A DNA stretch of 64,000 bases from Bdellovibrionia bacterium (lineage in GTDB: Bacteria > Bdellovibrionota > UBA1018), in assembly GCA_049424145.1 (NCBI GenBank), contig JBMSSC010000001.1, positions 16,017 to 80,016 on the forward strand, written 5' to 3'. This document shows, piece by piece, positions 7,988 to 51,336 of the stretch; the first letter of the stretch is position 1, and each line of letters opens with the position of its first letter. Made by a program: the position numbers and the translations under genes. The notes beneath the pieces are model-generated. The model was given only the letters and a program-made list of their open reading frames with translations. It had not been told where the DNA came from and ran no database searches.

Positions 7988-7988
7988 T

Positions 7989-32504: not shown

Positions 32505-33851
32505 ATGCGGAGAGTCGTGAAAACATCAGTAGTTGATAAAAAAGGTTTTTTTAGGAGCTTTTTGAGGCTCAGGAAGAGCCGGAGTGGGGCCTTGGCTCTT
32601 TTCTTCGTTTTTTTCTGCTTTTTCTCATCCGACATCCCTCCTTATGCCTTAGCTTCCATTGAGGCCCAGCGCTCTTGGAGCGCAACTTCAGGGGCAAAGT
32701 CCGCGCTTACGAAAGAAAAAGTGGCTCAGGTTTTAGAAAGCTCCGCTCTCATGGCGGAGTTTCCCCAAGAAATGGACCTGGAGGTTCAGCGCTTGGGGAA
32801 AGTCAAAGGGCGATTCCAGTATACGTTTGATCCTAAGCTTCAGCAGGCCATGGAGGGGCTCTTTGACGCCTATGGTCCCGATTATGGGGCCTTCGTCGCC
32901 ATGGATCCTAAAACAGGCCGGATCTTATCTTTGGTGAGTTATTCGCGGTCGGGAAAAATTCGAGAGAACCTAGCTCTAAGAGCAAGCTTTCCTTCGGCCT
33001 CCGTATTTAAAGTCGTCACCGCAGCCGCGGCCATTGAAAAACATCAGATTTCCTCAGAAACGGTGATTCCTACGCAGGGCCGAAATCACACGCTCTACCG
33101 AGGACAGATTTTAAAATCCCAAATCAATCGATGGACTCGCTTCATTACCTTAAAAGAAGCCTTTGCTCACTCCGTTAACTCCGTATTTGGAAAGATCGGG
33201 GCCTTCACTGTGGGCTCCACCGTGCTCAGACAGTACGCCGAACGCTTTGGTTTTAATCACAAAATCCCAGCGGATCTGCCCATTCAGGAAGGTCGAGCCT
33301 TCATTCCTGAAGACCTCTGGGGATTGGCCGAGAGTGCCTCAGGCTTCACACGGGAGAACACCATGAGCCCTCTTCAAGGAGCGCTCATTGCCTCGGCCGT
33401 GGCCAATGATGGGGTCATGATGGAGCCCTACGTGGTGGAGTCCATTGTGAAGCTTGCAGGCCATGAGAACGAGACTCAAGGACCGCCACTTTATCTGGCT
33501 GAGCCTAAGGTGTCCACCGTGGCGATGGATCCTGAGACGGCAAGCGAGATTCGGGATCTGATGAAAGAAACCGTTCTTCACGGAACATCACGCGGTTCGT
33601 TTCGAGGATTTTTCAAGAAAGACTTCTCCTTTTTGGATGTGGGAGGTAAAACCGGCTCTCTTACGGGCTTAAGTCCAAAGGGTAAGTACGATTGGTTTGT
33701 GGGCTATGCTCAATCCGGATCTCATCGGATTGCCGTCTCGGCGTTAACGATTTCAGAAAAACAATGGCGCGTGAAGTCCTCGTACTTAGCGCGTAGGGCT
33801 ATTGAGAATTATTTCCGGACCTCCGTTCATCATTCCTTGGCAGAAAGATAG
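32505..33851 (+). CDS. penicillin-binding protein, transpeptidase domain (class-B-like, short)
   Basis: N-terminal membrane anchor. SxxK (SASVFK), SxN (SVNSVF) and KTG (GGKTGS) active-site motifs. 448 aa. Confidence 0.7.
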   Translation: MRRVVKTSVVDKKGFFRSFLRLRKSRSGALALFFVFFCFFSSDIPPYALASIEAQRSWSATSGAKSALTKEKVAQVLESSALMAEFPQEMDLEVQRLGKVKGRFQYTFDPKLQQAMEGLFDAYGPDYGAFVAMDPKTGRILSLVSYSRSGKIRENLALRASFPSASVFKVVTAAAAIEKHQISSETVIPTQGRNHTLYRGQILKSQINRWTRFITLKEAFAHSVNSVFGKIGAFTVGSTVLRQYAERFGFNHKIPADLPIQEGRAFIPEDLWGLAESASGFTRENTMSPLQGALIASAVANDGVMMEPYVVESIVKLAGHENETQGPPLYLAEPKVSTVAMDPETASEIRDLMKETVLHGTSRGSFRGFFKKDFSFLDVGGKTGSLTGLSPKGKYDWFVGYAQSGSHRIAVSALTISEKQWRVKSSYLARRAIENYFRTSVHHSLAER

Positions 33852-33855
33852 TTTT

Positions 33856-34779
33856 TTGACCACGCTTCATCAACCGATTTTAGTGGAACCCATTGTTCAG
33901 GCCCTTTTGGAGCCCTTTCGGCGCTTACCTCCTGATGCTCCTCCTCATTTTATTTTGGATTGCACACTGGGAGGAGGAGGGCACAGTGCCGCTCTTTTGA
34001 ATGCGCTGGCTTGTGATCCCCAGTGCTCCCGCCATGGGCTGTTAGCCGTGGATCAGGATCAAGACGCCGTGGATCGAGCTCATCAGCGCTTTGCTGAGTG
34101 GATTGCCCAAGGAAAAATGGAGATTCGTCACGGTCGATTTGCCGATGCTTTTGATCTTTTTGCAGGCAAGCGAGTCCTAGGACTCTTGGCGGATCTGGGG
34201 TTTTCCAGCGATCAGCTGAATTTAGCAGATCGAGGGCTGAGCTTTCAGAGCAAGGGTCCGTTGGACATGAGGCTGGATCCGAGTCAGGGGGAGAGCGCCC
34301 AAGAGCTTCTCAGGCGAGTGAGCCAAAACGAACTGGAGAGGATCCTAGAGGAGTTTGGTGAAGAGCGGTTTGCCCGTCGGATTGCAGGGGCCATTGTGGA
34401 GAGAAGAAGGTTAGGAGAGCTCCCCACCACCACTCAAGCCCTCGTGGAGGTGATCGTTCGTGCCATTCCCCCGGGAGCCAGGCACGGGCGGATTCACGTT
34501 GCAACTCGAACCTTCCAAGCGCTTCGAATTGCGGTGAACCAGGAGTTAGAACAACTCGATCAGCTCTTAAGTCGAGGTCTTCCTCAGGTGGTGGTTGGAG
34601 GGCGTGCGGCCATCATCAGTTTTCACTCACTTGAGGATCGCCGGGTGAAGGTTTACTTCAAACAAGAATCTCAGTTTCAGAGCCTGACGAAAAAGCCGAT
34701 TCAGCCCGATGAGGCTGAGATTCGATCAAATTCCCGAGCTCGAAGTGCGAAGCTCAGGATCGCAGAACGAGTCGTGTGA
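33856..34779 (+). CDS. rsmH: 16S rRNA (cytosine1402-N4)-methyltransferase RsmH (MraW)
   Basis: HQPILVEPIVQAL…ILDCTLGGGGHS…FHSLEDRRVK. Probable TTG start at 33856. The track ORF from 33802 overlaps the PBP gene. Confidence 0.85.
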   Translation: MTTLHQPILVEPIVQALLEPFRRLPPDAPPHFILDCTLGGGGHSAALLNALACDPQCSRHGLLAVDQDQDAVDRAHQRFAEWIAQGKMEIRHGRFADAFDLFAGKRVLGLLADLGFSSDQLNLADRGLSFQSKGPLDMRLDPSQGESAQELLRRVSQNELERILEEFGEERFARRIAGAIVERRRLGELPTTTQALVEVIVRAIPPGARHGRIHVATRTFQALRIAVNQELEQLDQLLSRGLPQVVVGGRAAIISFHSLEDRRVKVYFKQESQFQSLTKKPIQPDEAEIRSNSRARSAKLRIAERVV

Positions 34780-34868
34780 CAAGTTTGGGCCATTGAGCGC
34801 GCCAAGAGGGGGTGTGGTTTTTTTCCCTTCGTTCCTCTTTTTTCTGCTTTAGGGACTAAGAAGGGTGG

Positions 34869-35237
34869 GTGGTTTGGGGTGGGCTCTTGCGCTTCCGTGA
34901 TGAGACGGAGATTGCGCCATTTTTGGGTTCAGATAGAATAAAACTCATGGTGAGCAGAATTCTTCCAATCTGGGTGGTCTTTGCTTTAGTGGTTTTTGCA
35001 ATTGGGAGCGTGTGGATTCGACTCCATATCATTCGAACCACCTATGCCATCAATGAGATGCATAGAAAAATGGAGCAAACCAAGCAAGATTCAGAACTGT
35101 TGCAAGTGAAGCTCTCGAGTCTGAAGTCTCCGAAGCATTTAGAAGCCTTGGCTCGGCGGAAGTTTGGTCTTCTGCAGCCGCGAATGGATCAGGTCATTCG
35201 CATGACCCAGTCGAAAGAAGCCCTTCATGGAACCTAA
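34869..35237 (+). CDS. ftsL: FtsL-like division protein (single TM + coiled coil)
   Basis: Small bitopic protein in the canonical slot between rsmH and ftsI. TM helix ILPIWVVFALVVFAIGSVWIRL followed by heptad-like sequence. The start may be the ATG at 34938. Confidence 0.5.
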   Translation: MVWGGLLRFRDETEIAPFLGSDRIKLMVSRILPIWVVFALVVFAIGSVWIRLHIIRTTYAINEMHRKMEQTKQDSELLQVKLSSLKSPKHLEALARRKFGLLQPRMDQVIRMTQSKEALHGT

Positions 35238-37353
35238 GGTGGAGGCTCAGATTTTCCCTGATGATTCGATCCGAAAACGCTTGGTGGTCACCTTAGCCAT
35301 TGGGGCGGTCTTCACCTGCTTGATCCTCGGGCGTGCTATTTTCATTCAGCTGATGAAACATCCCCGGTTAGAAGCCATGGCTTCTCGTCAGTACCATGCT
35401 CAATCCTTGGTTCAGCCCCGTCGAGGCGTCATTTTCGATCGAAACGGGGAGCGTCTTGCCGTGAGTGTGGATTCCTATAGTTTAGCAGCCAATCCTACTA
35501 AGATCCGAAAGCGCTGGATCTTAGCGCCCCTTTTAGCCAAGGCACTTCGCTCGAGCTCCTCACGATTGATGGAGAAGCTCAGTGAGCCTCGGGAGTTTGT
35601 TTGGATCAAACGGCAGTTGAGCGAGGCGGATCTCAGGGCGTTTAAAAAACTCTCACGCGTTGAATCGAATGATGATCTGCTCGAAGGCTTGTGGTTAGTC
35701 AAGGAAAGTAAGCGAGTTTACCCCCATGCCTCCCTTGCCGCGCATGTTTTAGGCGACGTAAATGTGGATTCAGATGGATTAGAAGGAGTTGAGCTTTGGC
35801 AAAATGAGCGATTGAAGGGAAAAATCCTCAGTGTTTCGGCCATTAAAGATGCCTTGGGTCGGCCAACTTTCATTGATGCAAAAGCCGCATCTCAACTCAC
35901 CGATGGCCAAAGTGTGAGTCTGACCTTGGACTCGGTTCTTCAGTATGAAATTGAGAGACTCCTCTCTGAGGCAGTTCGAAAAACGGGAGCCAAAGGGGGA
36001 TCCGTGATGGTGATGGATGCCCAATCCGGTGACCTGTTGGCTTTGGCCAATGAGCCCACGTTTGATCCCAATCAAAAGGGAATTCCCCTGGATCGTCGCC
36101 GAAACCGCGTGTTGACCGATGGCTACGAGCCGGGATCCACGATGAAACCCTTACTTCTTGCTGCGGCCCTCTCAAGTGGAATGAAGCTCAGTGATGAGTT
36201 GTGGGGAGAAAAAGGGAGTTTCATTTTACAAAAACGGAGGATTTCAGAAGCCGAGGCGCATGAAAAATTTGAGTGGATCAGCTTAAAAAAAATCATCCAA
36301 GTCTCCAGCAATGTGGGAGCTGCAAAGTTGGCCTTAAAAGTCGGAGCAGAGCGTTACTTGCAGGTTTTAAGAGCCTTTGGCTTGGGCGCAAAAACCGGAT
36401 CAGGGTTTCCGGGTGAGATTTCAGGCCGAATCCCGCCCAAAAAAGATTGGCAGCCTTTAACGCTAGCAAACATTGGCTTTGGTCAGGGCCTGCTGGTGAC
36501 CCCGATGCAGATGCTGAAGGCCTATGCCGTGTTTGCCAATGGGGGCTTTTTAGTGGAGCCCCATTTGATCCAAGCAGAGGCTCAGTCCAAGGATGAAAAA
36601 CCAGGGGCTCTTGCGCTGTCCCCTTTAAAAAAGCAGGTTCTCTCGCCTCAGGTCACTCAAGCTGTGGTGGAGGCCTTGGAGTCCGTCACTCAAAGCGGAG
36701 GCACGGCACAAAAAGCGGCAATGCCTGGCTACCGAATTGCGGGAAAGACAGGAACCGCTCAGGTGGTCGATCCTCACTCCGGGAAATACTCCCATGATCA
36801 ATACGTGTCCTCGTTCATTGGTTTTCCGGTGGGTTTGGACTCTTCGCTGGTGATCTTCACAGCCTTAAATGAGCCCAAAGGCGTCTACTATGCATCCGAA
36901 ACAGCAGTGCCCTTGTTTAAAGAGGTGCTCAGTGCGCTCATTCATCGCTACAGCTTGCCTGCGGAGCACGAGCCTGAGCTGTCGGTGAAGCCCGTGAAGT
37001 TGGCCAGTGCCTCTCTGTCTGCTCTGCGTTCATCCGGGGGGATGACCCAGGATGAACTTCATTGGACCCAAGCCTCGGTGCAGCAGGCGTCGTTGACCAA
37101 GGGGGACTCGCTGAGCTTAGGCGGATCTCTGCCTCGAGTCGTTCCCGTGCCCCAGACTGAGGACGTCAAACTGAGTCAATGGGTCATGCCCGATCTCCAA
37201 GGGCTTTCACCCAAAGAGGTGCTGGAAGTGCTTCAGGGCTATCCCTTTGCCCTGGAGATGAAGGGGATGGGGATGGTTGCTTCACAGACGCCGATGGCCG
37301 GTCAGCGGCTCTCCAAAAGAAGTCGAGTTCGACTGGTGTTTTCAGAACCTTGA
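35227..37353 (+). CDS. ftsI: peptidoglycan D,D-transpeptidase FtsI (PBP3) with a C-terminal PASTA domain
   Basis: PBP dimerisation and transpeptidase domains (SxxK STMKP, SSN, KTGTA). The last ~65 aa (VMPDLQGLSPKEVLEVLQG…) look like a PASTA domain. Confidence 0.85.
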   Translation: MEPKVEAQIFPDDSIRKRLVVTLAIGAVFTCLILGRAIFIQLMKHPRLEAMASRQYHAQSLVQPRRGVIFDRNGERLAVSVDSYSLAANPTKIRKRWILAPLLAKALRSSSSRLMEKLSEPREFVWIKRQLSEADLRAFKKLSRVESNDDLLEGLWLVKESKRVYPHASLAAHVLGDVNVDSDGLEGVELWQNERLKGKILSVSAIKDALGRPTFIDAKAASQLTDGQSVSLTLDSVLQYEIERLLSEAVRKTGAKGGSVMVMDAQSGDLLALANEPTFDPNQKGIPLDRRRNRVLTDGYEPGSTMKPLLLAAALSSGMKLSDELWGEKGSFILQKRRISEAEAHEKFEWISLKKIIQVSSNVGAAKLALKVGAERYLQVLRAFGLGAKTGSGFPGEISGRIPPKKDWQPLTLANIGFGQGLLVTPMQMLKAYAVFANGGFLVEPHLIQAEAQSKDEKPGALALSPLKKQVLSPQVTQAVVEALESVTQSGGTAQKAAMPGYRIAGKTGTAQVVDPHSGKYSHDQYVSSFIGFPVGLDSSLVIFTALNEPKGVYYASETAVPLFKEVLSALIHRYSLPAEHEPELSVKPVKLASASLSALRSSGGMTQDELHWTQASVQQASLTKGDSLSLGGSLPRVVPVPQTEDVKLSQWVMPDLQGLSPKEVLEVLQGYPFALEMKGMGMVASQTPMAGQRLSKRSRVRLVFSEP

Positions 37354-37403
37354 TGCTAGGCCTAAGAGGAGCGGTAGTCCTCTTGCCCGTCTCAAGGAGA
37401 TTT

Positions 37404-38915
37404 ATGCTGAAACCTCAATTGACTCAACTCACGTTAGTTCAACTCCTGGCGCTCTTACCGAAAGAAATCCTTTCTCCTCAAGATCCCAGCAGGCAAGCCC
37501 TTTTGCATGGCTCTGCTCAGGTCACAGGCGTGACCTCTGATTCAAGAGAAGTGAAGCCAGGCAGTGTGTTTGTGGCCATTTGTGGGGGCACTCAGGATGG
37601 ACATCAATTCATCGATTTAGCTTTAGAAAAAGGCGCCGTTTTTGTGGTCGGTGAGCAACCCATGCCCTCTTCGCAGCTCAAGGGAGTCTATCTCCAGGTT
37701 TCCGATAGTAGGGAGGCCTTAGCAGCCTTGGCCGCTCAATTTTTTCATCATCCCTCCGATGGGCTTTTGGTGCTCGGAGTCACCGGAACGAGTGGAAAAA
37801 CCACCACCACTTTTATTCTGGAGTCCATTTTAGCGGCAGCGGGGCATCGTGTGGGAATCATTGGAACCATTCACTTTCGTGTGGGCAACCAAGTCCTTCC
37901 TTCCACGCACACCACCCCGGGCGCAGCAGAGCTTCAAGGTCTTTTGGCGGAGATGAAAAACGCAGGCTGCACCGCCGTGGTGATGGAGGTGTCCTCTCAT
38001 GCTTTAAAGCAAAAACGAGTGGCATCCGTGGCTTTTGATGGCGTGGTGTTTACTAATCTCTCGCCTGAGCACTTGGATTTTCATCCTGACTTGGAGGATT
38101 ACTTTCAGTCCAAGGCCCTTTTGTTCACTGAGTGCATGAAGTTTTCTCAGTCTCGGGGGAAAAAGCCTGTCATGGCCATCAATTCAGAAGATGAACACGG
38201 CCATCGCCTCCTTCGCACTCTTGCCGCTCCCCACAGTGCGTTTTTACCTCAGCACGCTTTGCAGGTGAGCCCCAGTGGGATCTCAGGGCAGCTGGGTCCT
38301 GTGAAAGTGGAGTCGTCGTTTACGGGGCAATTTAATGGGTCCAACCTATCAGCTGCCGTGACGCTTGCTTTGGCCCTCCAAATCTCCATCCCCTGCATTG
38401 AGCGGGGAATCCGAGACCTCAAAGGGGTCCCTGGGCGTTTAGAGCGAGTCCCCAATGCTCGGGATATTCATGTTTGGGTGGATTATGCTCATAAGCCCGA
38501 TGCTTTAGAGAAGGTGCTCAAAACGTTATCTCTTTTGCGGGGGGGAAACCGCCTCATCACGGTTTTTGGGTGTGGCGGGGATCGAGACCGAAAAAAACGG
38601 CCGCTCATGGGGAGGATCGCAGCTGAAAATTCGGATTGGGTCTTTGTGACTTCGGATAACCCTCGAACCGAAGATCCTCAGGCCATTATGGATGAGATTT
38701 TGGCGGGAATGACGGGGCATTCGCATGTGAGTGTTGAGGTGGATCGAAAAACGGCCATTTTAAAAGCCGCTTGCTTGGCCCGACCCGGAGATCTAGTGGT
38801 GATTGCAGGAAAAGGCCATGAAACCTATCAAATCATGGGCACAACACGGGTGCACTTTGATGATCGAGAGGTGGCAGCCTGGGCCTTTGAGCAAAAAGAG
38901 CCAACCCAGGGCTGA
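37404..38915 (+). CDS. murE: UDP-N-acetylmuramoyl-L-alanyl-D-glutamate--2,6-diaminopimelate ligase
   Basis: Mur ligase P-loop GVTGTSGKTTT. DNPR motif (SDNPRTEDP) typical of MurE. I chose the ATG at 37404 rather than the track start at 37179, which overlaps ftsI. Confidence 0.9.
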   Translation: MLKPQLTQLTLVQLLALLPKEILSPQDPSRQALLHGSAQVTGVTSDSREVKPGSVFVAICGGTQDGHQFIDLALEKGAVFVVGEQPMPSSQLKGVYLQVSDSREALAALAAQFFHHPSDGLLVLGVTGTSGKTTTTFILESILAAAGHRVGIIGTIHFRVGNQVLPSTHTTPGAAELQGLLAEMKNAGCTAVVMEVSSHALKQKRVASVAFDGVVFTNLSPEHLDFHPDLEDYFQSKALLFTECMKFSQSRGKKPVMAINSEDEHGHRLLRTLAAPHSAFLPQHALQVSPSGISGQLGPVKVESSFTGQFNGSNLSAAVTLALALQISIPCIERGIRDLKGVPGRLERVPNARDIHVWVDYAHKPDALEKVLKTLSLLRGGNRLITVFGCGGDRDRKKRPLMGRIAAENSDWVFVTSDNPRTEDPQAIMDEILAGMTGHSHVSVEVDRKTAILKAACLARPGDLVVIAGKGHETYQIMGTTRVHFDDREVAAWAFEQKEPTQG

Positions 38916-38992
38916 GGCGTTGGGGACTTCAGCAGACCCGCACGTGTGGTAAACTCTTGACACCGGCTTTTAAAAATCTGTAGCATTCGGAG

Positions 38993-40069
38993 ATGCTCTT
39001 TCAATTTCTCTATCCGCTTCATGCGAAGTACTCAGTGCTTCATGTGTTTAAGTACATCACCTTTCGGAGTTTCGGTGCCAGCATCACGAGTCTTTTGATC
39101 TGCATGCTCATGGGCCCCTCCTTCATTCGCTTCCTTCAGAGAAAGCAAATGGGGCAGTCCATTCGGGATGACGGACCCAAAAGCCATCTCTCGAAAAAAG
39201 GTACACCCACGATGGGAGGGGGGTTAATTCTCTTTGGGATCGTTCTGCCGACTCTGCTTTGGTCGGATCTGGGAAATAAGAGCGTATGGATTGCTCTAGT
39301 GACCACGATTTTGTTTGGTCTCATTGGGTATGTTGACGATTACCGAAAAGTGATTCAAAAAAACTCCAAGGGCCTCTCCAGTCGTCAGAAGATTGTGAGT
39401 CAAACGCTGGTGGCCTTGGTGGCCGCTTACGTGATTTACGTCACTCGCGATACGCCCCCGGTTTTAAAGTTCCCGTTCTTTAAGGATTGGTCTTTTTATC
39501 TGGGTCTATTTTTTGTGCCCTTTGCTACGTTCGTGATCGTGGGTGCTTCCAATGCGGTCAACCTAACCGATGGTCTCGATGGCCTTGCTGTGGGTCCCAC
39601 CATCACCACTTCAGTCACGTTTCTCGTGCTCGCTTATTGCGCAGGGCATGTGAAGATTGCCGAGTACCTTCAAATTCCCTATGTGCCCGGGGCAGGGGAG
39701 TTAGCCGTATTCTGTGGCTCAGTTGCGGCTTCGTGCTAGGGCATTTTATGGATTAATACCTATCCTGCTCAAGTTTTTATGGGGGATGTGGGGTCGTTGG
39801 CTTTAGGTGCAGCCTTGGCTGTCGTTGCCGTGATCACAAAAAATGAAATCTTGCTTGCACTTTGTGGGGGAATTTTCGTAATTGAAGCCCTCTCGGTGAT
39901 GGCACAGGTGACGTCTTTTAAGATGACAGGGAAAAGGGTCTTAAGAATGGCGCCCATTCATCATCATTTTGAGCTAAAAGGGTGGGCTGAGCCTAAAATT
40001 ATTGTGAGATTTTGGATCATCTCGATTTTATTGGCCCTATTTACTCTCTCGACTTTGAAATTAAGGTAG
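38993..40069 (+). CDS. mraY: phospho-N-acetylmuramoyl-pentapeptide transferase MraY, interrupted by an in-frame TAG at 39737-39739 (possible pseudogene or base-call error)
   Basis: Track ORFs 38993..39739 and 39779..40069 are in the same frame. Codon-by-codon reading gives …[35 protein letters not shown]…, which is co-linear with the E. coli MraY motif …[26 protein letters not shown]…. The stop sits at the conserved Leu. Confidence 0.7.
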
Positions 40070-41470: not shown

Positions 41471-41587
41471 GAGGAGAAGCGCTCAAGGGTTTGCAGGAGG
41501 AGGGACTCTCTGACCCACTTCAAACAGAGCTTTTGGCCGAATCGGAGTTGGAAAATCGACTGGAAGCTTTTTTTTCTAGTTCTAGCC

Positions 41588-43753: not shown

Positions 43754-45152
43754 AAAAGAAGAAACCTGGCTTCATTTTGTAGGAATCGGTGGCATTGGCA
43801 TGAGTGGGATTGCCGAGGTGTTCTTAAACCAGGGATATCAAGTCAGCGGATCTGATTGGAGTGAGTCAGAAACCACCAAGCGCCTAGCCCAGTTAGGTGC
43901 GCGGGTCTTTCAAGGCCACAGTAAGGACCACGTGGGTTCAGCCAACGTGGTGGTCATTTCTTCAGCCGTGAAGCCGGATAATCCAGAGGTGGTGGAGGCC
44001 AAGGCCAGGCGGATTCCTATTATTCCTCGAGCAGAAATGTTGGGTGAGTTGATGAGAGGTAAGGTGGGTATTGCCGTGGCGGGAAGTCATGGAAAAACCA
44101 CCACCACCTCTCTTTTATCCACCGTCTTAACCTCAGCTGGGCTTGATCCGACGCTTGTGATTGGCGGCAAAGTGGACTCCTTGGGGGGCAATGCCAAGCT
44201 GGGTCGAGGGGAAATTGTGGTGGCTGAAGCCGATGAGAGCGATGGTTCGTTCCTGCATCTGCCTGCGACCATCGGAATTATTACTAATATTGACAACGAT
44301 CATTTGGATCACTTTGGGAGCCTCAGTGCTGTAGAAGACGCGTTTGTCGAGCTGGTCAGTCAGCTGCCTTTTTATGGTCTGGCTGTGATTTGTGGAGATG
44401 ATCCAGGAGTCAAGCGCTGCATGAGTCGGTGGAGTAAGCCGTATCAAACCTATGGACTCTCTGAGGAGTGTGATCTGTTTGCGCGCAAGATTGAGTACCA
44501 GGGGTTAGGCTCCACGTTTGAAGTGGTGAGGAAAGAACCGAGCGGGGCCCACCAATGCCTCGGTCAGTTCCAGCTCAAGGTGCCCGGGCAGCACAATGTT
44601 CTTAACGCTCTGGCTTGCATTTTAGTGGCCCTAAAGCTTGAGGTGGAGATCCCTAAAATTGCTCAGGGTTTAGCTGAGTTTCAAGGAGTGAAGCGCCGAT
44701 TCGACATTCGTTACTCCGATGAGCTGCGGCATCGGGCGATTGTGGATGATTACGCTCACCATCCCACTGAGCTGATGGCTACTTTAGAGGCGGCTCGGCG
44801 ATTTTGGAAAGGACGAATCATCAGTGTGTTTCAGCCGCATCGTTACAGTCGAACACTTCACTGTCATGATGGGTTTTTGTCCTCCTTCGTTCGATCGGAT
44901 GTGGTGATTTTAACGGATATCTACCCCGCAGGGGAGGAGCCCATTCCTGGAGTGAGTGCTCAGGGCTTGGCCGAGGAGATTCAACGCTTGGCTCGGGCGG
45001 ATCAAGTTGTGCTCTATGGGGGGGATTTAAAGAACACAGAAACCCTATTAAGTGGGCTTTTTAAGGATGGGGATTTAATCCTGTGTTTAGGGGCTGGATC
45101 CATAACGAAGCTTCCCGATCAGCTGACAGCCTTGCGGATGAAATCCGGATGA
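43746..45152 (+). CDS. murC: UDP-N-acetylmuramate--L-alanine ligase
   Basis: HFVGIGGIGMSGIAE N-terminus, P-loop GSHGKTTTT, Mur ligase middle and C-terminal domains. Confidence 0.9.
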   Translation: MFRKEETWLHFVGIGGIGMSGIAEVFLNQGYQVSGSDWSESETTKRLAQLGARVFQGHSKDHVGSANVVVISSAVKPDNPEVVEAKARRIPIIPRAEMLGELMRGKVGIAVAGSHGKTTTTSLLSTVLTSAGLDPTLVIGGKVDSLGGNAKLGRGEIVVAEADESDGSFLHLPATIGIITNIDNDHLDHFGSLSAVEDAFVELVSQLPFYGLAVICGDDPGVKRCMSRWSKPYQTYGLSEECDLFARKIEYQGLGSTFEVVRKEPSGAHQCLGQFQLKVPGQHNVLNALACILVALKLEVEIPKIAQGLAEFQGVKRRFDIRYSDELRHRAIVDDYAHHPTELMATLEAARRFWKGRIISVFQPHRYSRTLHCHDGFLSSFVRSDVVILTDIYPAGEEPIPGVSAQGLAEEIQRLARADQVVLYGGDLKNTETLLSGLFKDGDLILCLGAGSITKLPDQLTALRMKSG

Positions 45153-46099
45153 CTTCGTGGGATGAGAGTCGCTTTTGGAAAAATCCGGAGGGTTTTCGGG
45201 GAGAGCTCAGGTGGAATGAGCCGCTGTCCAAGCACACGTATTATCGGATTGGTGGACCGGCTCGGCTACTTGCTATACCGACTTCAGTTTCTGATCTGCA
45301 GTGGCTTGCTCAAGGGATTGAAAACTCAGGGGTTCGCTTTTTAGTCTTGGGTTTGGGCTCCAACGTTTTAGCCAGTGACGAGGGGTTTGCAGGGCTCGTT
45401 ATTCGGTTGCATCGACTGAATTTAAAAATTGAACCTCAATTCCAAAAAGACGACCCAGGCCTCGGTGCAACCGAGATTCTAACAGGAGCAAGTGTGGCCA
45501 ATTCCACGCTTTTAAGGCGAGCCGCTCAAGAGGGCTGGGGTGGGCTTGAGTTTCTCTCGGGGGTACCGGGTTCCGTAGGTGGTGCTGTGGTGATGAATGC
45601 AGGCACGCATCTGGGTGAGGCTCAAAGTCGGATTCGCAAGGTAGTGGCCTACCGTTTAGGGGAGTTTCAATCGGAGCCTGAGGTTTATGTGGGCGATCAG
45701 CTTCGCTTTGAGTATCGCTCGCATCGGTTTCTTCCGGTAGACTCCGTGGTGTACTCCGTGGTTTGGGAAGTGCAGAGGGATGAGCCAGCGCTCGTGCAGC
45801 AGCGGATCGATGAGATGCTTCGCAGACGAAAAAGCACTCAGCCCGTGGACTACCCCTCCTGCGGAAGTGTCTTTAAAAACCCAAAAGAATCTGGACTCTC
45901 GGCTTGGCAAGTGGTGGATCGTTTGGGTTTAAGAGGCCATCAAATTGGACAGGCTCAGTTTTCTCCCAAGCACAGCAATTTTATTATTAATCTCGGAGGT
46001 GCTCAAGCCAAAGATGTCCGAGCTCTCATTGAATTGGCCAAGATGCGGGCTCAGACGGAGCTTGGCATTACGCTTCAACAAGAAGTGATCTATATCTAG
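45149..46099 (+). CDS. murB: UDP-N-acetylenolpyruvoylglucosamine reductase
   Basis: FAD-binding PCMH domain (YRIGGPARLL, LGLGSNVL) and C-terminal MurB domain. The start overlaps the murC stop (ATGA at 45149-45152). Confidence 0.9.
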   Translation: MTSWDESRFWKNPEGFRGELRWNEPLSKHTYYRIGGPARLLAIPTSVSDLQWLAQGIENSGVRFLVLGLGSNVLASDEGFAGLVIRLHRLNLKIEPQFQKDDPGLGATEILTGASVANSTLLRRAAQEGWGGLEFLSGVPGSVGGAVVMNAGTHLGEAQSRIRKVVAYRLGEFQSEPEVYVGDQLRFEYRSHRFLPVDSVVYSVVWEVQRDEPALVQQRIDEMLRRRKSTQPVDYPSCGSVFKNPKESGLSAWQVVDRLGLRGHQIGQAQFSPKHSNFIINLGGAQAKDVRALIELAKMRAQTELGITLQQEVIYI

Positions 46100-46103: not shown

Positions 46104-47495
46104 TTATTCTTTTGAGAATAAAACCTCTTTCACCTCTTTGGGTTGTACGCCTGAGGCTTGAATCAAAGCGGCTCTGAGTTTTTTTGAGGTAGCAAGCACT
46201 GAGATGGCAAGTTGATCGGGTTTTAAGAAGTGGTTCAGCGCCTGATTGACCTGAGGGAGAGTGAGCTTCCTGAGTTCAGAGGCAAACGACTGCATGAAGC
46301 CTGTTGGAAGCTTGAGAGTTTTCTCCAAGATCTTATTTTCAACCCGCTTTTTAGGCGTGTTGTAGGTGAATCCCGAGCTCTGGATGAGGCTTTGCTGGGC
46401 AAACTCAAACTGCTGGGGCGTGAGTCCATGCTCTTTCAGCTGGGAAATGAGCTGAAGGGAGTGTTTGAGGGCTGCTGCTGCATCCGCTTGGGCAGGGTAC
46501 AGGTGCACGATCCATGAGCGGGGTTCTGTTCCGTGTCGAAATTGGCTGGAAACCCCATAGCTCCAGCCGCGCTTCACTCGAATCTCCTCCATTAAAGTGG
46601 AGGAAAAGGAGGGTCCGCCAAAGGCATGATTGCCCAAGTAAAGGCTGAAGAAATCAGGATCCGTCATCTTCACTCCAATTTGTCCGATGTGGATCTGGGT
46701 TTGAGTGCGATCCGGTTTATCGATGATTAAAAGTCGTCTTGTTTGTGCGTTCTCAGGGCGCCCCAGGGGAGTGGTGAGTCCTAAAGATGCTGTTGTGTTT
46801 GGGGTTTGAGGGGTAGGCGTACTGAGGAGTTTTTGCAGACTCTCGCCTAGGGTTTTTGCCCAAGCTTGGATGGGTTCCACAGGAGAGTCGCCTGAGCCGA
46901 GAATGAAAAGAGAGTCCTCTTTTAAAAGGGCCCGGTGATGAGCGAGCACTTGCTCTCTTGTCATGGATTCAATGTCTGGGGTTCTTCCCAAAACGGAGCG
47001 GCCGTAGGGGTGGTCTTGAAAGAGGAATTGAGTGAAGCTTCGTGTGGCCAAGCTGGAGTCGTGGCCTTTTTCCTCTTGGATTCCCGCGATGATTTCAGCC
47101 TTGAGTTTATCGATCTCCAGTTGTGGGAAAGAGGGCTCCGTCAGGAGTTCGCGTAGAAGGCTTAAGAAAGGGTTCAGTTGACTCGAGAGGACAGCTCCCC
47201 TGAAAATCAATGCCTCAGCTCGGGTCTCCACCTCAAGCTTGGCTCCCCATTGATCTAAAGCTTGATCGATTTGTGCTTTATTCTTCGAGCGTGTGCCCCG
47301 AAGGAGCATCTCCCCCATGAAGTTGGTGAGACCCATTTGCCCCTGGGGGTCTTTCACCGATCCATGGTTGAGCACCACATTGAGGTAGACTAGAGGTAAA
47401 TTTGAATTCTTCTCAAAGTCGACTTCAAGAGCGTGGCCTAAAGTGGCGCTCAGGAAACAGAGATATCCCAGTAGTGTCAGCACCCAGGGTTTCAT
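46104..47495 (-). CDS. M16-family peptidase, non-catalytic-type subunit (no HxxEH)
   Basis: Signal peptide (LLGYLCFLSATLGHA). Pitrilysin-like fold, but the zinc-binding inverted motif is absent (…MGLTNFMGEMLLRGT…). It overlaps the upstream M16 gene by 4 nt. Confidence 0.8.
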   Translation of the reverse strand: MKPWVLTLLGYLCFLSATLGHALEVDFEKNSNLPLVYLNVVLNHGSVKDPQGQMGLTNFMGEMLLRGTRSKNKAQIDQALDQWGAKLEVETRAEALIFRGAVLSSQLNPFLSLLRELLTEPSFPQLEIDKLKAEIIAGIQEEKGHDSSLATRSFTQFLFQDHPYGRSVLGRTPDIESMTREQVLAHHRALLKEDSLFILGSGDSPVEPIQAWAKTLGESLQKLLSTPTPQTPNTTASLGLTTPLGRPENAQTRRLLIIDKPDRTQTQIHIGQIGVKMTDPDFFSLYLGNHAFGGPSFSSTLMEEIRVKRGWSYGVSSQFRHGTEPRSWIVHLYPAQADAAAALKHSLQLISQLKEHGLTPQQFEFAQQSLIQSSGFTYNTPKKRVENKILEKTLKLPTGFMQSFASELRKLTLPQVNQALNHFLKPDQLAISVLATSKKLRAALIQASGVQPKEVKEVLFSKE

Positions 47496-48922
47496 GTTCG
47501 AGATCCTTTCTTTTTGAGACGATTCTCAAGCTTTGGGGTCCCAACGATCACGGTGCGTTCGCGGGGCTGAAAGTAGCGTTGAGCAACGCGCTGAATATCA
47601 CGAGGTTTGAGTGCGTCGACGGCTTTTTGCAGCTGAAGCCCCGCCTGAAAATCTCCGTGAAGCGTTTCATGGTGTCCTAAGAACATGGCTTTTGAGAAGT
47701 TCGAGCTCAATCCCTCGTAGAAGCTAAAGTTGAACTTGTTCTTAGCCTTTTGCAGTTCCTGGGTTGAGATGAGCGAGGTTTGAAGAACCGACAACTCATT
47801 TAAAATCACCTTCTCCGCCTGCTCAGCTCGTTTTCCTTGTTGCAGGGTGGCAGAAATCACGAATAACGATGGGTCTTTATTTCCATAGTTTCCACAATCC
47901 ACAGCGCTTGCGATGCCTGTCTCCACAAGGGCTTGATTCAGGCGGCTGCTCTTACTGCCTGCTAAGAGGTTTTGTAAGACCTCCAGAGCGGCAGTGTCCG
48001 GGCTTTGGGCTTGAGGCGAGTGGTAGCCCATTAAGATTTTCTCAAGCTCGATGTTGAGCTTGAGTTCCTTTTTTCTAAAAGCCATCTGAGGAGGTTCTTT
48101 AGGAACAAAGTGCGGAAGATCCACCTCCGCATCCACAGATCCGTAATACTTCTGAGCAAGTTTGAGCACGTCCTGGGTGTTCACGTCTCCTACGACCACT
48201 ACGGTGGCATGGGCTGGACTATAGAACCTCCGGTAAAACGCCATCGCATCGGCTGGACGCATTGCGTTTAAGTCCTTCTCATAGCCGATCACAGGCCAGT
48301 GATAGGGGTGTCGTTTAAAAGCTAGATCAAAAAGACTTTCCTCAAGTGTTCCATCCTGACTATTTTCAGTTCTCAGTCGACGCTCGTTTTGAACGACCTC
48401 TCGCTCGGTTTTAAATCCCTTTTCGTCAATCACAAGCTGGGTCATTCGATCGGACTCAAGCTTCATGACGAGCTCAAGTTGATCTTTGGGGAGTTCCTGC
48501 ACGTAGGCCGTGTAGTCATGAGAAGTAAACGCATTTTCTCCTAAAACCCCTGCCTTTTCTAAAAGACGATCAAATTCGCCTGCCTTGTAATTCTTAGTTC
48601 CTTTGAACATCATGTGTTCAAAGAAATGGGCGAGGCCCGTCTTCCCCACTTGTTCGTCTTTTGAGCCCACCTTGAACCAGGTTTGATAAGCAAAAGTGGG
48701 AGATGCGTGATCTTCCAGAACTAGGATCTTCAGTCCATTGGCCAGATGGAACGTGGTCACTTTAAAATCCCCAACCAAAGGTTTCACTCCGGCCTCAGTT
48801 GAAACTGATTTTTCCTCTACAGCCTTTAAAGGAAGCTCAGCCGCTTCAGAAAGGGAGAAGAAAAATGTGCAGCAAAGCAGTTGCAGGAAGCCTAGCCAGG
48901 TTGCGCGATCGTTTTTATTCAT
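47492..48922 (-). CDS. M16-family zinc peptidase, catalytic-type subunit (HxxEH present)
   Basis: HFFEHMMFKGT inverted zincin motif plus downstream Glu. Signal peptide if translation starts at MNKND (48922). The track start at 48997 adds 25 residues. Confidence 0.8.
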   Translation of the reverse strand: MNKNDRATWLGFLQLLCCTFFFSLSEAAELPLKAVEEKSVSTEAGVKPLVGDFKVTTFHLANGLKILVLEDHASPTFAYQTWFKVGSKDEQVGKTGLAHFFEHMMFKGTKNYKAGEFDRLLEKAGVLGENAFTSHDYTAYVQELPKDQLELVMKLESDRMTQLVIDEKGFKTEREVVQNERRLRTENSQDGTLEESLFDLAFKRHPYHWPVIGYEKDLNAMRPADAMAFYRRFYSPAHATVVVVGDVNTQDVLKLAQKYYGSVDAEVDLPHFVPKEPPQMAFRKKELKLNIELEKILMGYHSPQAQSPDTAALEVLQNLLAGSKSSRLNQALVETGIASAVDCGNYGNKDPSLFVISATLQQGKRAEQAEKVILNELSVLQTSLISTQELQKAKNKFNFSFYEGLSSNFSKAMFLGHHETLHGDFQAGLQLQKAVDALKPRDIQRVAQRYFQPRERTVIVGTPKLENRLKKKGSRT

Positions 48923-49015: not shown

Positions 49016-49843
49016 ATGGTTCACTTCCATTGTAAAAAACTCATGCGTGCAGGTCTAGTGGGAAGTCTGATTCTCATGGGGCTGAGTCTGAGAGCAATTT
49101 TTCATCTCTCGATTTTTACGATTCATGCGATTGAGGTCAGAGGGATTCCTCAGGGTGCAGAGGTTTCAACTGCCTTTGTGTCTGAATCTGACCTCATTGA
49201 GCTTTCAGCCGTTCCTCTTCACGAAGTTTCTCTGTTTCAAATTGGAGTAGTCGAGTTGGAGCGTCGTCTTCAGTCGCATCCATGGGTCTCTCAAGTGAAA
49301 GTCATTCGAGGTTTTCCTCATCGCCTCATCTTGGATGTCCGTCTGAGAAAGCCCGTTGCTGTCTTCTCAGACGGTGGGCATGATTTAAGGTACATGGATG
49401 AGAGTGGAGCAACTTTTGGTCCCATACCGCTCGCTCAGCTCAAACCGTATCCTGTTTTGATGGGGTGCCTCAAAGATCCTGAAGTGGTTGCAAAAGCGCT
49501 GTTATTGATGAAGCAATGGGAGATGGCTTCGATTGGGAAACGGGCTGAGCTCACTTCCATAGATTATGATCGAGATCGAGGCTTCCGAGCAACCATGAGT
49601 TATGGCGCCTTGAAAAGTAAAATGCTGAATACAAAAAAACAAATGAGTCCCTTGCTTCCTGTAAGTGGAAGCCGTTATCGAACTCTAGTTGATTTTGGTC
49701 AAGAAATTGACGGAAAATTACTCTCACGTCTAGAGCAGCTTTCATCGGTTGTTCAATATTTATCCGACTATTCTTTACCCGTTCGTCAAATATGGGTGGA
49801 TGGAGATAAAAAGATTGTTGTCAAATCAGTTCCTCGTTCTTAG
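49016..49843 (+). CDS. ftsQ: cell division protein FtsQ (TM + POTRA + beta domain)
   Basis: TM helix GLVGSLILMGLSL followed by a POTRA-like region (IHAIEVRGIPQ…VKVIRGFPHRLILDVRLRKPVAV). ATG at 49016 chosen. Confidence 0.8.
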   Translation: MVHFHCKKLMRAGLVGSLILMGLSLRAIFHLSIFTIHAIEVRGIPQGAEVSTAFVSESDLIELSAVPLHEVSLFQIGVVELERRLQSHPWVSQVKVIRGFPHRLILDVRLRKPVAVFSDGGHDLRYMDESGATFGPIPLAQLKPYPVLMGCLKDPEVVAKALLLMKQWEMASIGKRAELTSIDYDRDRGFRATMSYGALKSKMLNTKKQMSPLLPVSGSRYRTLVDFGQEIDGKLLSRLEQLSSVVQYLSDYSLPVRQIWVDGDKKIVVKSVPRS

Positions 49844-49947
49844 AATTTAAGAGAGAGGAAATTTTTGCCTATCAATCCTGTGTAAACGAAGAAATCCTGC
49901 CGGGGAAGTGGTTTTGAAAATTCTAATACAGAAGGGTAATTTAAAAT

Positions 49948-51336
49948 ATGTTTGATATCAATCAGTTGGTTGCTCAAGGCGCAAAAATAAAAGTAGTTGG
50001 GGTCGGGGGGAGTGGTTGCAACGCAGTGAATACCATGATTCGCACGGGGCTTGAGGGCGTTGAATTTATAACGGCGAACACCGATCGGCAGGCGTTGGAT
50101 GCTTCTTTGGCTCCTGTGAAACTTGCGATCGGCCAAGAGTTGACCAAAGGGCTTGGAGCCGGAGCGAATCCCGAAGTGGGACGAAATGCTGCTTTAGAAG
50201 ATTACGCAAAAATCTCAGACCTCCTCTCGGGCTCAGACATGGTTTTCATCACTGCCGGTATGGGCGGTGGCACGGGAACAGGAGCCGCACCTGTATTTGC
50301 AAAAATTGCAAAAGAAGTGGGTGCTTTAACGGTGGGTGTGGTGACTAAACCGTTTCTTTTTGAAGGTCGTAAGAGAATGAAGCACGCTGAGCAGGGGATG
50401 AACTGCTTAAGAGAGAGTGTGGACTCGCTCATTACAATTCCAAACCAGAGACTTCTTGCGATTTCAGGCGCTACGTTGTCGATGGTGGATGCATTTAAAA
50501 AAGCTGATGAAGTTTTACTCAATGCAGTGCAGGGGATTTCTGATTTGATCAATCACACCGGTCTGATCAACAGTGACTTTGCCGACGTTAAGACGATTAT
50601 GCAGAATAAGGGCCTTGCCCTTATGGGGATCGGTTACGGGGATGGAGAGCACCGCGCGGTGGAGGCTGCGACCAACGCTATTTCCAGCCCTCTGCTTGAG
50701 GATGTCTCCATTGATGGCGCAACAGGGATCATCATTAATATTACGGGTGGAGAGACTCTGAAGATTCATGAAGTCAATGAGGCGACTACGCTGATTATGG
50801 AAGCGGCTCATGAGGATGCAGAAATCATCTTTGGTACGGTGATTGATGAAGCGTTTAAAGACCGTGTGAAAGTCACGGTGATTGCAACAGGGTTGGGCAA
50901 TAGCATTCGAGCCGCGCAGCAGCCTGAAAGAGTGAAGGAAAAAACGAGCTCCTCTGTTTTTGTTCCGCCTCAATATGCCGTGAATTCAGAGGCCTCTGCG
51001 AATTCCTCAGCTCAAGTGATGCCGCCTGCGCCTCCTGCGGCATTGAACTCCTCTCCCACAGGAGCTTCAGTTGTCGCGGAGTCTCAGCCAGGGGTATCTT
51101 TCAGTGCAGCCTCAGCGGATCCTTTGCTTCAAGCGGGCTCCGCTCATGCTCATGAGCCTCAGGGTCTTTCAGCCATCCCGCCGGTTCCTCCGACCTTGAA
51201 TCCAGGCGTGGGCGCTGAGACAGGAGAATTGGCTCGGGCTCGTTTGATTGCGCAAAAACTGGGAATCACCAACCTAACGGATGATCAGTATGTTCCGCCT
51301 GCGTATCTCAGAAGAGCTCAGGAGCCAGAAATTTAG
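49948..51336 (+). CDS. ftsZ: cell division GTPase FtsZ
   Basis: Tubulin signature GGGTGTG, T7 loop NLDFADV-like (NSDFADVKT), a long disordered linker, and a C-terminal conserved peptide [14 protein letters not shown]. Confidence 0.95.

Follow-up and report, generated by a model that had tools for sequence, protein, structure and literature searches.

The cell-wall and cell-division cluster described here lies in a stretch of 64,000 nucleotides (the window). Judging from its sequence it would be a working cluster with ordinary function, and its layout is not a one-off rearrangement but is already standard for a clade well represented in public data. We put at roughly 85% the probability of the whole reading: a functional, clade-typical cluster with an ancestral removal of murF, ddl and mraZ, a fixed pair of M16 peptidase genes, a deletion of ftsA in a sub-lineage, and a TAG codon in mraY that does not reflect decay. 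The loss of ftsA is a sub-lineage event and the sole feature special to the window organism and its sister lineage, while the remaining four differences are clade-wide. By similarity to named relatives, the organism appears to be an uncultured relative of Bdellovibrio; it carries the NCBI label Bdellovibrionia, and its relatives include members of the GTDB class UBA1018 ('Bdellonasia').

Gene order and parts of the cluster

The order in the window is short PBP–rsmH–ftsL–ftsI(PASTA)–murE–mraY–murD–ftsW–murG–murC–murB–[M16 x2, opposite strand]–ftsQ–ftsZ. An earlier note had proposed this order and these gene identities, and every call is backed by Pfam and NCBIfam. The features are as follows.

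29801-30547, minus strand: PilZ-domain protein (Pfam; neighbouring module)
30540-31595, minus strand: MreB (Pfam; neighbouring module)
31589-32449, minus strand: PNP_UDP_1 phosphorylase-family protein (Pfam; neighbouring module)
29801..32449, minus strand: the PilZ–MreB–PNP module as a whole, divergent from the short PBP
32505..33851, plus strand: short PbpA-like class-B-type transpeptidase (PF00905 alone; SxxK, SxN, KTG)
33856..34779, plus strand: rsmH (mraW), 16S rRNA methyltransferase (PF01795, 287 bits)
34947..35237, plus strand: ftsL-like small bitopic protein (position, size, alignment to relatives' ftsL)
35227..37353, plus strand: ftsI, class B PBP with one C-terminal PASTA (Pfam)
37353..38915, plus strand: murE, meso-DAP type (NCBIfam NF001126, 508.6 bits against a cut-off of 373)
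38993..40069, plus strand: mraY with in-frame TAG (comparison with relatives)
40085..41470, plus strand: murD (TIGR01087, 420.8 bits against a cut-off of 212)
41534..42646, plus strand: ftsW, SEDS (PF01098, 352 bits; tblastn)
42656..43753, plus strand: murG (Pfam)
43746..45152, plus strand: murC (TIGR01082, 526 bits; equivalog above cut-off)
45149..46099, plus strand: murB (NF010480, 289 bits)
46104..47495, minus strand: M16 peptidase subunit without zinc motif (Pfam, translation)
47492..48922, minus strand: M16 peptidase subunit with HFFEH (Pfam, translation; MFZ9594502.1)
49016..49843, plus strand: ftsQ, POTRA (PF08478, POTRA_1, 31 bits)
49844..49947, plus strand: ftsQ-ftsZ spacer of 104 bp (position of ftsA in relatives)
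49948..51336, plus strand: ftsZ (Pfam)
51395..51428, plus strand: terminator-like hairpin closing the cluster (15-bp stem, then a T run; consensus scan only)

Some gene starts have more than one candidate. For rsmH these are TTG 33856, 4 bp past the PBP stop, and TTG 33802, and the alignment of relatives' RsmH begins at 33856. The ftsQ start is probably ATG 49016, in an ORF open from TTG 48944 to which relatives align from about 49076. The ftsL ORF is open from GTG 34869, and its matches to DivIC/FtsL profiles are weak, all falling under the curated cut-offs. MurE could begin at ATG 37353, which overlaps the stop codon of ftsI as TGATG, or at ATG 37404, which has AAGGAG upstream; a 578-aa ORF from 37179 was rejected as an over-extension. 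Its length is 503-520 aa according to the start, and MurE is therefore not a fusion; the 77 bp between its stop and the mraY start hold no murF, both as the earlier note had stated. The ATGA overlaps that it cited as a mark of tight packing are real at murC/murB and between the two M16 genes.

FtsI is made up of PBP_dimer, Transpeptidase and PASTA domains, the last (residues 654-706, about nt 37186-37344) scoring 29.5 bits against a cut-off of 23.2, so that the C-terminal PASTA reported previously stands. PASTA was also found on FtsI in L001, L008 and L015; the linker between transpeptidase and PASTA is about 35 aa longer in the window than in aligned relatives.

Taken together, MurB would provide UDP-MurNAc, MurC, MurD and MurE the UDP-MurNAc tripeptide, and MraY and MurG lipid I and lipid II, while the same cluster would supply FtsW and FtsI as the septal synthase pair, along with FtsL, FtsQ and FtsZ.

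The short PBP upstream of rsmH carries the motifs SASVFK, SVN and KTGS in its translation and consists of a transpeptidase domain preceded by just about 127 aa, with no PBP_dimer; the NCBI model (MFZ9594491.1) starts at 32592 and has 419 aa. The top ones among its 1916 homologues come from Bdellovibrionota, and the nearest solved structures are 4mnr and the M. tuberculosis PbpA structures 3un7/3lo7. The earlier note had described a short class-B-like PBP in the position of mraZ. The PBP, its motifs and the missing mraZ all hold. The MreB-PNP block adjoins the PBP in L008/L009, L015 and L016 as well, and in L016 the MreB-PNP|(Transgly)-PBP module is present without rsmH behind it; membership of this neighbouring module is a better reading of the gene than a substitution for mraZ. 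In the window the PBP immediately precedes rsmH, with which co-transcription is predicted.

Distribution among relatives

About 30 independent public loci share this backbone: L001, L008/L010 (on a 1.68-Mb contig), L011/L015, L013, L014, L017 and 24 metagenome loci. L011 and L015 both belong to the magnetotactic Bdellovibrionota MAG FG-1, of the GTDB class UBA1018 (PMC13200544). In L001, for example, the order is Transgly-PBP-dtd-rsmH-ftsL-ftsI(PASTA)-murE-mraY-murD-ftsW-murG-murC-murB-[protease, M16, M16]-ftsQ-ftsA. Across the clade murE abuts mraY, no ddl precedes ftsQ, the M16 pair and ftsQ diverge, FtsI bears PASTA, mraZ is missing and a short PBP lies upstream. The synteny comparison that the earlier note had called for thus shows a backbone without murF, ddl and mraZ recurring in independent assemblies, and the recurrence of this backbone, the M16 pair, the PASTA domain and the short PBP supports its suggestion that the rearrangements are genuine and might mark out a lineage.

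Could the layout nevertheless be an assembly or binning artefact, a chimeric contig or one with genes dropped at collapsed repeats? The source is a MAG, and a perfect 3,231-bp tandem duplication within the window, the stop in mraY and the odd 5′ end of ftsW indicate that the consensus is not flawless. However, the murE|mraY, murB|M16, M16|ftsQ and PBP|rsmH junctions recur in independent NCBI, ENA and JGI assemblies, the ftsQ|ftsZ junction without ftsA recurs in L013 and L018 from two different metagenomes, and the flanking synteny is shared (PilZ-MreB-PNP upstream, S8/DksA/Arf-like/RecR/DnaX downstream). Mis-assembly, which the earlier note had named among the outcomes that would undo its reading, is therefore excluded for practical purposes, and we give an artefact hardly any credence.

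A Pfam scan found no mraZ, murF, ddl or ftsA among the ORFs of the whole 64 kb. MurF, Ddl and MraZ probes matched nothing in the window, bearing out their reported lack, nor in any clade locus, while outgroup loci, which served as positive control, were matched, with murF at its canonical place in L073 and L082 and ddl in L070. An ancestor of the clade would have removed the three genes from the cluster. We infer that murF and ddl are encoded elsewhere in the genome, since MraY and two D,D-transpeptidases need a precursor ending in D-Ala-D-Ala. The two are missing from the cluster in many relatives whose clusters are intact, so this absence is old and can go together with a functional wall.

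Two antisense M16 genes had been reported in the position of ddl, and Pfam and the translations agree. Each encodes Peptidase_M16 and M16_C domains; the upstream one has HFFEH (NCBI MFZ9594502.1, 476 aa, 100% match), the downstream one NFMGE in place of HxxEH. Both proteins start with a hydrophobic signal-like segment, and a periplasmic location is therefore predicted. A gap of 4 bp separates the subunit lacking the zinc motif from murB, with which it is convergent; the HFFEH subunit overlaps its partner subunit by ATGA and is divergent from ftsQ. When we checked the pair in relatives, as had been suggested, it adjoined ftsQ in about 30 loci (24 of them metagenome loci fetched with FtsZ), holding its place despite insertions that split off murB (L011, L014) or inversion of the block (L026-L028). 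A two-subunit periplasmic M16B peptidase operon, catalytic plus non-catalytic, would thus have become fixed back-to-back with ftsQ.

This persistence, along with a divergent spacer of just 49-114 bp in most relatives, could suggest that the pair is a putative functional part of the division machinery, co-regulated with ftsQ(A)Z through a divergent control region, and not a passenger. We consider this unlikely: inertia within the clade can preserve adjacency, conservation of the spacer sequence is limited to the window and L013, no M16 gene was found upstream of ftsQ in two clade loci (L031 and L042) or in the outgroup loci, and M16B pairs are widespread general periplasmic peptidases.

The ftsA site, mraY and ftsW

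The absence of ftsA had also been reported before, and in addition to the Pfam scan, tblastn of the window with FtsA of three relatives matched MreB only. Of 30 loci from relatives, 28 carry the gene; L013 and L018 lack it, as does the window. In an NJ tree the window groups with L013 at 99% bootstrap, inside a set of relatives that bear ftsA, and the ftsQ-ftsZ spacers of the two can be aligned. The tree indicates that the absence at this site would be a single event, in which ftsA would have been deleted between ftsQ and ftsZ in an ancestor common to L013/L018 and the window organism. A promoter-like TTGTCA-17-TAGAAT lies in this region at 49818-49846.

An in-frame TAG at 39737-39739 splits mraY where relatives have a conserved Leu codon (TTG or TTA). 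The sequence downstream of it is fully conserved and is the best conserved part of the protein. TAG terminates 16 of the 56 ORFs of the window, in which no tRNA genes were found. In the NCBI accession numbering 1 of 13 genes lacks a protein, a gap that would fit a pseudogene call for mraY. Judged from these comparisons, the likeliest origin of the TAG is an error in the consensus, a variant carried by a minority or a mutation that arose very recently; neither recoding nor decay is indicated.

In ftsW, tblastn and three-frame inspection found no ATG, GTG or TTG start upstream of the first membrane helix. Homology to relatives starts at about 41534, and the earliest canonical start is ATG 41588, already within TM1. 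A possible start is a CTG at about 41509 with AGGAGG before it; the other option is a frameshift from ATG at 41406. Neither the mraY TAG nor the ftsW 5′ end figured in the earlier note.

Together with the loss of ftsA, these two anomalies in one essential cluster could hint at relaxed selection. More radically, the cluster might be decaying, with canonical wall synthesis and division being lost and murF and ddl truly absent. The C-terminal peptide of FtsZ, kept but altered in comparison with the DDEYDIPxYMRR aligned in relatives, would fit such a scenario. However, every other gene of the cluster is intact and, the ftsL-like gene aside, scores over its family cut-off; MraY shares 83% identity with its FG-1 counterpart and is best conserved after the TAG; and in L013, likewise without ftsA, both mraY and ftsW are intact. 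The absence of murF and ddl is old and common to relatives with intact clusters, and the window outside the cluster is densely coding, with gaps of more than 250 bp at four places only, the last being the window end. Decay is thus very improbable, and we retain the reading of a functional cluster.

Comparison with known systems

The short PBP resembles M. tuberculosis PbpA (3un7, 3lo7) and the short class B PBPs 4mnr and 4jbf, which likewise have about 420-490 aa and a reduced N-terminal domain. Its transpeptidase domain aligns with these PbpA-type structures at E values of 1e-17 to 1e-22, at low similarity, and in place of rodA-pknAB it has MreB/PNP as genomic partner, joined in some relatives by a GT51 transglycosylase. 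The M16 genes recall heterodimeric M16B peptidases, namely the alpha/beta type of the mitochondrial processing peptidase and bacterial two-gene pairs, in being adjacent, translationally coupled and with HxxEH in only one; what sets them apart is the signal-like N-terminus on both and the fixed place back-to-back with ftsQ in the clade.

The genes shared with the E. coli-type cluster (mraZ-rsmH-ftsL-ftsI-murE-murF-mraY-murD-ftsW-murG-murC-ddlB-ftsQ-ftsA-ftsZ) have the same relative order and lie tightly packed on one strand from rsmH to ftsZ, ending in a terminator-like hairpin. The window differs in lacking mraZ, murF, ddl and ftsA, in including murB, in the antisense M16 operon between murB and ftsQ, in the PASTA on FtsI and in the extra short PBP upstream.

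In the B. subtilis-type cluster mraY directly follows murE, a separate operon elsewhere holds murF and ddl, and murB immediately precedes divIB/ftsQ; the Bacillus FtsI homologues PBP2B and SpoVD bear PASTA domains. The window shares the succession of murE and mraY and the PASTA on FtsI, whose top NCBIfam match is the SpoVD family. Bacillus, however, has mraZ and ftsA, no murC in the cluster and no M16 pair, whereas the window lacks the first two and has murC and the M16 pair, and its organism, a relative of Bdellovibrio, is diderm, with LptF/G encoded in the window.

B. bacteriovorus HD100, of the same phylum, has Ddl outside the cluster at Bd0585, and the order murE...mraY-murD...murG-murC...ftsZ is common to both. 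Its dcw region (Bd3189-Bd3205) retains murF (Bd3204, adjoining murE, Bd3205) and ftsA (Bd3190), unlike the window. Bd3192 is a chemotaxis protein, Bd3193 a universal stress protein and Bd3195 a hydroxypyruvate reductase, and there is therefore no M16 pair between Bd3191 and Bd3196 (PMC12546842 supplement).

The paper on FG-1 holds no discussion of division or wall genes (PMC13200544). Its assembly (GCA_051382295.1) differs from the window in having ftsA, a monofunctional transglycosylase before the PBP and about 10 kb of other genes beside the M16 pair, on the window's murB side. It reads MreB-PNP|Transgly-PBP-rsmH-ftsL-ftsI(PASTA)-murE-mraY-murD-ftsW-murG-murC ... [M16 x2]-ftsQ, likewise without murF and mraZ, with protein identities to the window of 83% for MraY, 70% for MurD and about 78% for FtsZ.

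Gene content and order of the division/cell-wall cluster

Few gene arrangements are as conserved among bacteria as the division/cell-wall (dcw) cluster, and clade-specific departures from it are therefore useful as phylogenetic markers and as hints on the organisation of division. In the window, the genes for the Mur ligases, for MraY and MurG and for FtsL, FtsI, FtsW, FtsQ and FtsZ are co-oriented, contiguous and in their conserved relative order. ORF listing with Pfam and NCBIfam matches reproduced the order read in an earlier note, namely short PBP-rsmH-ftsL-ftsI-murE-mraY-murD-ftsW-murG-murC-murB-[M16 x2, opposite strand]-ftsQ-ftsZ, in which the product of ftsL is a small protein of FtsL-like type. 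The cluster encodes MurB, MurC, MurD, MurE, MraY, MurG, the SEDS-bPBP pair FtsW-FtsI, FtsL, FtsQ and FtsZ, with all domains intact except for a stop codon in mraY and the 5′ end of ftsW.

32505-33851, plus strand: short PBP, an ORF of 448 aa with a transpeptidase domain only (Pfam)
38993-40069, plus strand: mraY
39737-39739, plus strand: in-frame TAG within mraY

The finer points of the earlier note were largely confirmed. The motifs expected of the short PBP (SASVFK, SVN and KTGS) are present in its translation, and the FtsI gene, located between ftsL and murE, encodes PBP_dimer (PF03717, 56.9 bits) and PF00905 (233.5 bits) domains; the NCBIfam FtsI and SpoVD models both match it with scores under their equivalog cut-offs. 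As claimed, FtsI carries one carboxy-terminal PASTA domain (residues 654-706), scoring 29.5 bits with PF03793 against a Pfam gathering cut-off of 23.2, and this domain is also kept in three related loci (L001, L008 and L015). MurE is of the meso-DAP type, over the equivalog cut-off of NCBIfam, and is 503-520 aa long once its over-extended ORF is trimmed to the ATG at 37353 or 37404. The fusion of MurE with MurF that the note had discounted is ruled out by this length and by the absence of any cluster ligase scoring as MurF: TIGR01143 matches are partial and under cut-off, and the three ligases score above cut-off as MurE, MurD and MurC. The tight packing with ATGA overlaps was found again at murC/murB and between the two M16 genes, with TGATG at ftsI/murE, and the gaps at murE-mraY and ftsQ-ftsZ measure 77 and 104 bp respectively. 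Expression would be from one long operon that begins ahead of either the PBP or rsmH; as only 4 bp separate the PBP stop from a putative start of rsmH, transcription would likely read through from the PBP into the cluster. Consensus matches would allow further promoters inside the cluster, between murE and mraY and ahead of ftsZ, and a terminator behind ftsZ; the candidate between murE and mraY is TTGACA-18-TAGCAT at 38957-38986. Since the counts of the promoter and terminator scan were near shuffled expectation, we use only the post-ftsZ hairpin and two 10/12 promoter-like sites, and those descriptively.

The TAG in mraY aligns to an invariant leucine, whose codon in related loci is TTG (L001, L013) or TTA (L008), and is explained by a single base change. 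The 110 codons that follow it are as conserved as the remainder of the gene. The 13 genes have 12 consecutive NCBI accessions, which fits a pseudogene call for mraY by NCBI. We take the TAG to be a mutation of recent date, a variant or an error in the consensus. Reassignment or recoding of TAG, or a suppressor tRNA, is ruled out, given that TAG is the ordinary terminator of 16 of the 56 ORFs of the window, that a single one occurs in frame and that no tRNA gene was found in the window. In ftsW, no ATG, GTG or TTG occurs between the murD stop at 41470 and an ATG at 41588, itself midway through the first membrane helix; in that frame the relatives are homologous from about 41534 on, and murD and ftsW share one frame with a single TAA between them. 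It is possible that translation starts at a CTG at about 41509 preceded by AGGAGG, or that a frameshift joins ftsW to the ATG at 41406 of another frame.

The full canonical set of dcw genes is not present in the window. No MraZ, MurF, Ddl or FtsA was found with Pfam among the ORFs of the 64 kb, including small gap-filling ones, and tblastn and probe searches likewise bear out the reported absence. The MurF probes came from clostridial loci, and the DdlB and MraZ probes were E. coli sequences that served as probes only. The MurF, Ddl and MraZ probes matched neither the window nor any of the clade's loci; these negatives have positive controls, as the same probes detected murF (L073, L082), ddl (L070) and mraZ (L004, L006) in outgroup loci. 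The absence of mraZ, murF and ddl from the cluster is common to the relatives, ftsA being the exception. MurF and Ddl would be supplied from other sites of the genome, because MraY and the two D,D-transpeptidases depend on a precursor with a pentapeptide and because ddl is also unlinked in Bdellovibrio bacteriovorus HD100.

A layout shared by related genomes

The synteny comparison with relatives that the earlier note had proposed recovered the same backbone in independent assemblies, with the M16 pair adjoining ftsQ. L012 was left out because its assembly is apparently error-rich, with fragmented genes.

Gene order in relatives of the window
L001, Bdellovibrionales MAG: Transgly-PBP-dtd-rsmH-ftsL-ftsI(PASTA)-murE-mraY-murD-ftsW-murG-murC-murB-[trypsin-like, M16, M16]-ftsQ-ftsA
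L008/L010, single 1.68-Mb contig: PilZ-MreB-PNP / PBP-rsmH-(Fic, RES)-ftsL-ftsI(PASTA)-murE-mraY-murD-ftsW-murG-murC-murB-(toxin-antitoxin, HD)-[M16 x2]-ftsQ-ftsA-ftsZ
L015/L011, magnetotactic MAG FG-1: MreB-PNP / Transgly-PBP-rsmH-ftsL-ftsI(PASTA)-murE-mraY-murD-ftsW-murG-murC; about 10 kb off, [M16 x2]-ftsQ-ftsA-ftsZ
L014, NCBI 'Oligoflexia' MAG: matching pattern, small insertions
L017, JGI metagenome contig: matching pattern, small insertions

This recurrence indicates that the rearrangements are genuine, as had been proposed. The further suggestion that they could define a lineage holds in that the layout marks a clade, but it is the norm of a well-sampled clade and not a one-off, so that the window's layout is no striking anomaly. 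In an FtsZ-based scan of metagenome loci with cluster genes mapped, the M16 pair adjoined ftsQ in 24 of 80, and in these murB and the second M16 gene often converge; the M16 pair is missing from more distant loci, some of which have murF ahead of mraY or ddl ahead of ftsQ. M16 and FtsA homologues could be inferred to lie on one contig in 26 cases (mostly >10 kb, one or two short ones possibly being coincidence), which agrees with the synteny. Fic, RES and RelB/YafQ genes are found inside the dcw cluster at L008 12857-15576 and L010 13908-14481, at the rsmH/ftsL and murB/M16 joints, and the presence of such toxin-antitoxin-type genes shows that the cluster tolerates insertions there. In the metagenome loci L026-L028, the murC-murB and M16 block is inverted relative to ftsQ, so that the M16 genes share the strand of ftsQ, and murB-murC lie on the other.

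As the earlier note read, one of the two M16 products has the zinc motif HxxEH and the other does not, and together they have the characters of an M16B pair. Both subunits contain M16 and M16_C domains and a hydrophobic, signal-like amino-terminal segment, and the upstream subunit has HFFEH where the downstream one has NFMGE. By analogy with M16B enzymes, they are probably the two halves of a heterodimer in the periplasm that has a single active site. The persistent back-to-back placement of the M16 genes and ftsQ suggests shared regulation. A shared M16/ftsQ regulatory motif was not upheld, the alignment being conserved only between the window and L013, its sister lineage.

The short PBP has the characters of PbpA-like proteins: SxxK, SxN and KTG motifs, a short amino-terminal region without PBP_dimer and no glycosyltransferase domain. 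Its closest solved structures are short class B PBPs, 4mnr and M. tuberculosis PbpA (3un7, 3lo7). The earlier note placed this gene in the mraZ position; a transpeptidase gene does lie upstream of rsmH where no mraZ is found, but it is not a replacement of mraZ. In relatives it belongs to a conserved block with MreB-PNP on one strand and PBP, in some preceded by a monofunctional GT51 transglycosylase, on the other. In L016, another related locus, unrelated genes, and not rsmH, come after the MreB-PNP/transglycosylase-PBP block, and thus the PBP is part of an adjacent module, one that in most cases borders on the dcw cluster. The GT51 gene directly precedes the PBP at L001 15-2284, L015 9031-11320 and L016 9162-11293; L008 and the window lack it there, and no Transgly homologue was found in the window. 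In the relatives, the transglycosylase and the short PBP together look like the two parts of a class A PBP, each encoded by its own gene.

Loss of ftsA from the locus

Of greatest interest is that the sub-lineage of the window has cleanly lost ftsA from this locus, in what the phylogeny indicates was one event. As the earlier note stated, no ftsA lies in the 104-bp spacer between ftsQ and ftsZ, and tblastn with the FtsA of three relatives matched only MreB (30540-31595) in the window. The gene is present in 28 of the 28 other clade loci reaching that far, and the FtsA of the relatives, encoded between ftsQ and ftsZ, is highly conserved, with 73-78% identity among four of them. Among relatives with context, L013 is the closest (M16 61% identical), and it lacks ftsA too, as does L018, a second assembly of the same population (ftsQ 98% identical). 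A neighbour-joining tree of the two M16 proteins and FtsZ (1239 columns, 25 taxa) joined the window and L013 at 99% bootstrap within ftsA-bearing relatives, and their ftsQ-ftsZ spacers are alignable, which together point to a single deletion of ftsA from the locus in their common ancestor. A candidate third ftsA-less genome (P0123) is on a contig that ends 83 codons past ftsQ. The distant bioreactor-metagenome locus L096 (FtsZ 60% identical), outside the window's clade, has ftsQ directly followed by ftsZ with no ftsA (6379-8216).

The best 120 matches of a search with an FtsA profile built from four relatives were filled by other Bdellovibrionota, none being on the window's 96,266-bp contig; the one homologue checked among them (P0303) has the accession of another MAG and not of the MFZ9594xxx series. 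The carboxy-terminal peptide of FtsZ is retained in the window, slightly altered ([12 protein letters not shown]), and is canonical in L013. One could imagine that the window organism and L013/L018 have lost FtsA from the genome altogether, that FtsZ is tethered via another partner of its carboxy-terminal peptide and that the M16B pair is a clade-specific divisome accessory; we consider this rather unlikely, at about one chance in four. The single deletion from the locus would in any case be a naturally occurring one, in a diderm that has a canonical FtsZ, and, if ftsA is truly gone from the genome, would point to another membrane anchor.

Surroundings of the cluster and comparison with known systems

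Upstream of the cluster, 23239-26469 and 26470-29700 form a perfect abutting tandem duplication of 3,231 bp (100% identical). Within it are the 5′ end of an FtsJ-like gene, an ORF of 114 aa and the gene for an RCC1-repeat protein of 785 aa (24085-26442 = 27316-29673). The duplication either arose very recently or is an artefact of assembly. Downstream of ftsZ, 54021-55439 and 55578-57020 encode tandem paralogous S8 subtilases with a fervidolysin-type amino-terminal prodomain, against a single S8 gene at the corresponding place in L011 and L017. PMT-like and GT87-like membrane glycosyltransferase-like proteins (51619-53061 and 62376-63770) flank this downstream region; the gene at 51619-53061, directly after the ftsZ terminator, was not seen there in L010, L011 and L017. 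A small Ras/Arf-like GTPase at 57573-58166 (minus strand), beside recR and dnaX, may be an MglA-like regulator, and the order DksA-GTPase-RecR-DnaX is kept in the same three loci.

Two proteins of the window, the short PBP and the catalytic subunit of the M16 pair, match MFZ9594491.1 and MFZ9594502.1, respectively, with 100% identity; both accessions belong to a 'Bdellovibrionia bacterium' MAG. FG-1 and FG-2 are magnetotactic Bdellovibrionota that fall in UBA1018 at the GTDB ranks of class, order and family, and Bdellonasia has been proposed as the name of the class (PMC13200544), in a paper where cell division and peptidoglycan go unmentioned. No paper on the dcw layout of Bdellovibrionota, or on PASTA in Bdellovibrio, was found in the literature searched, and general dcw surveys do not mention Bdellovibrionota. 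Not having been previously described, the layout is a modestly new variant with an ordinary function. Modest leads are the periplasmic M16B pair locked to ftsQ clade-wide, the PASTA-bearing FtsI in a diderm lineage and the PbpA-like transpeptidase beside MreB and, in relatives, beside a monofunctional transglycosylase; none of them alters what the cluster does.

For B. bacteriovorus HD100, a proteome supplement (PMC12546842) lists FtsZ (Bd3189), FtsA (Bd3190), a chemotaxis protein (Bd3192), a universal stress protein (Bd3193), hydroxypyruvate reductase (Bd3195), MurC (Bd3196), MurG (Bd3197), MurD (Bd3200), MraY (Bd3201), a CBS protein (Bd3203), MurF (Bd3204) and MurE (Bd3205), with Ddl at Bd0585. 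As in the window, ddl is thus outside the cluster; in contrast, these locus-tag products show that in Bdellovibrio proper murF and ftsA have stayed in the cluster and ftsQ has no M16 pair as its neighbour. The window's layout marks another branch of Bdellovibrionota, large and mostly uncultured, which includes the recently described magnetotactic forms and which this variant sets apart from Bdellovibrio proper.
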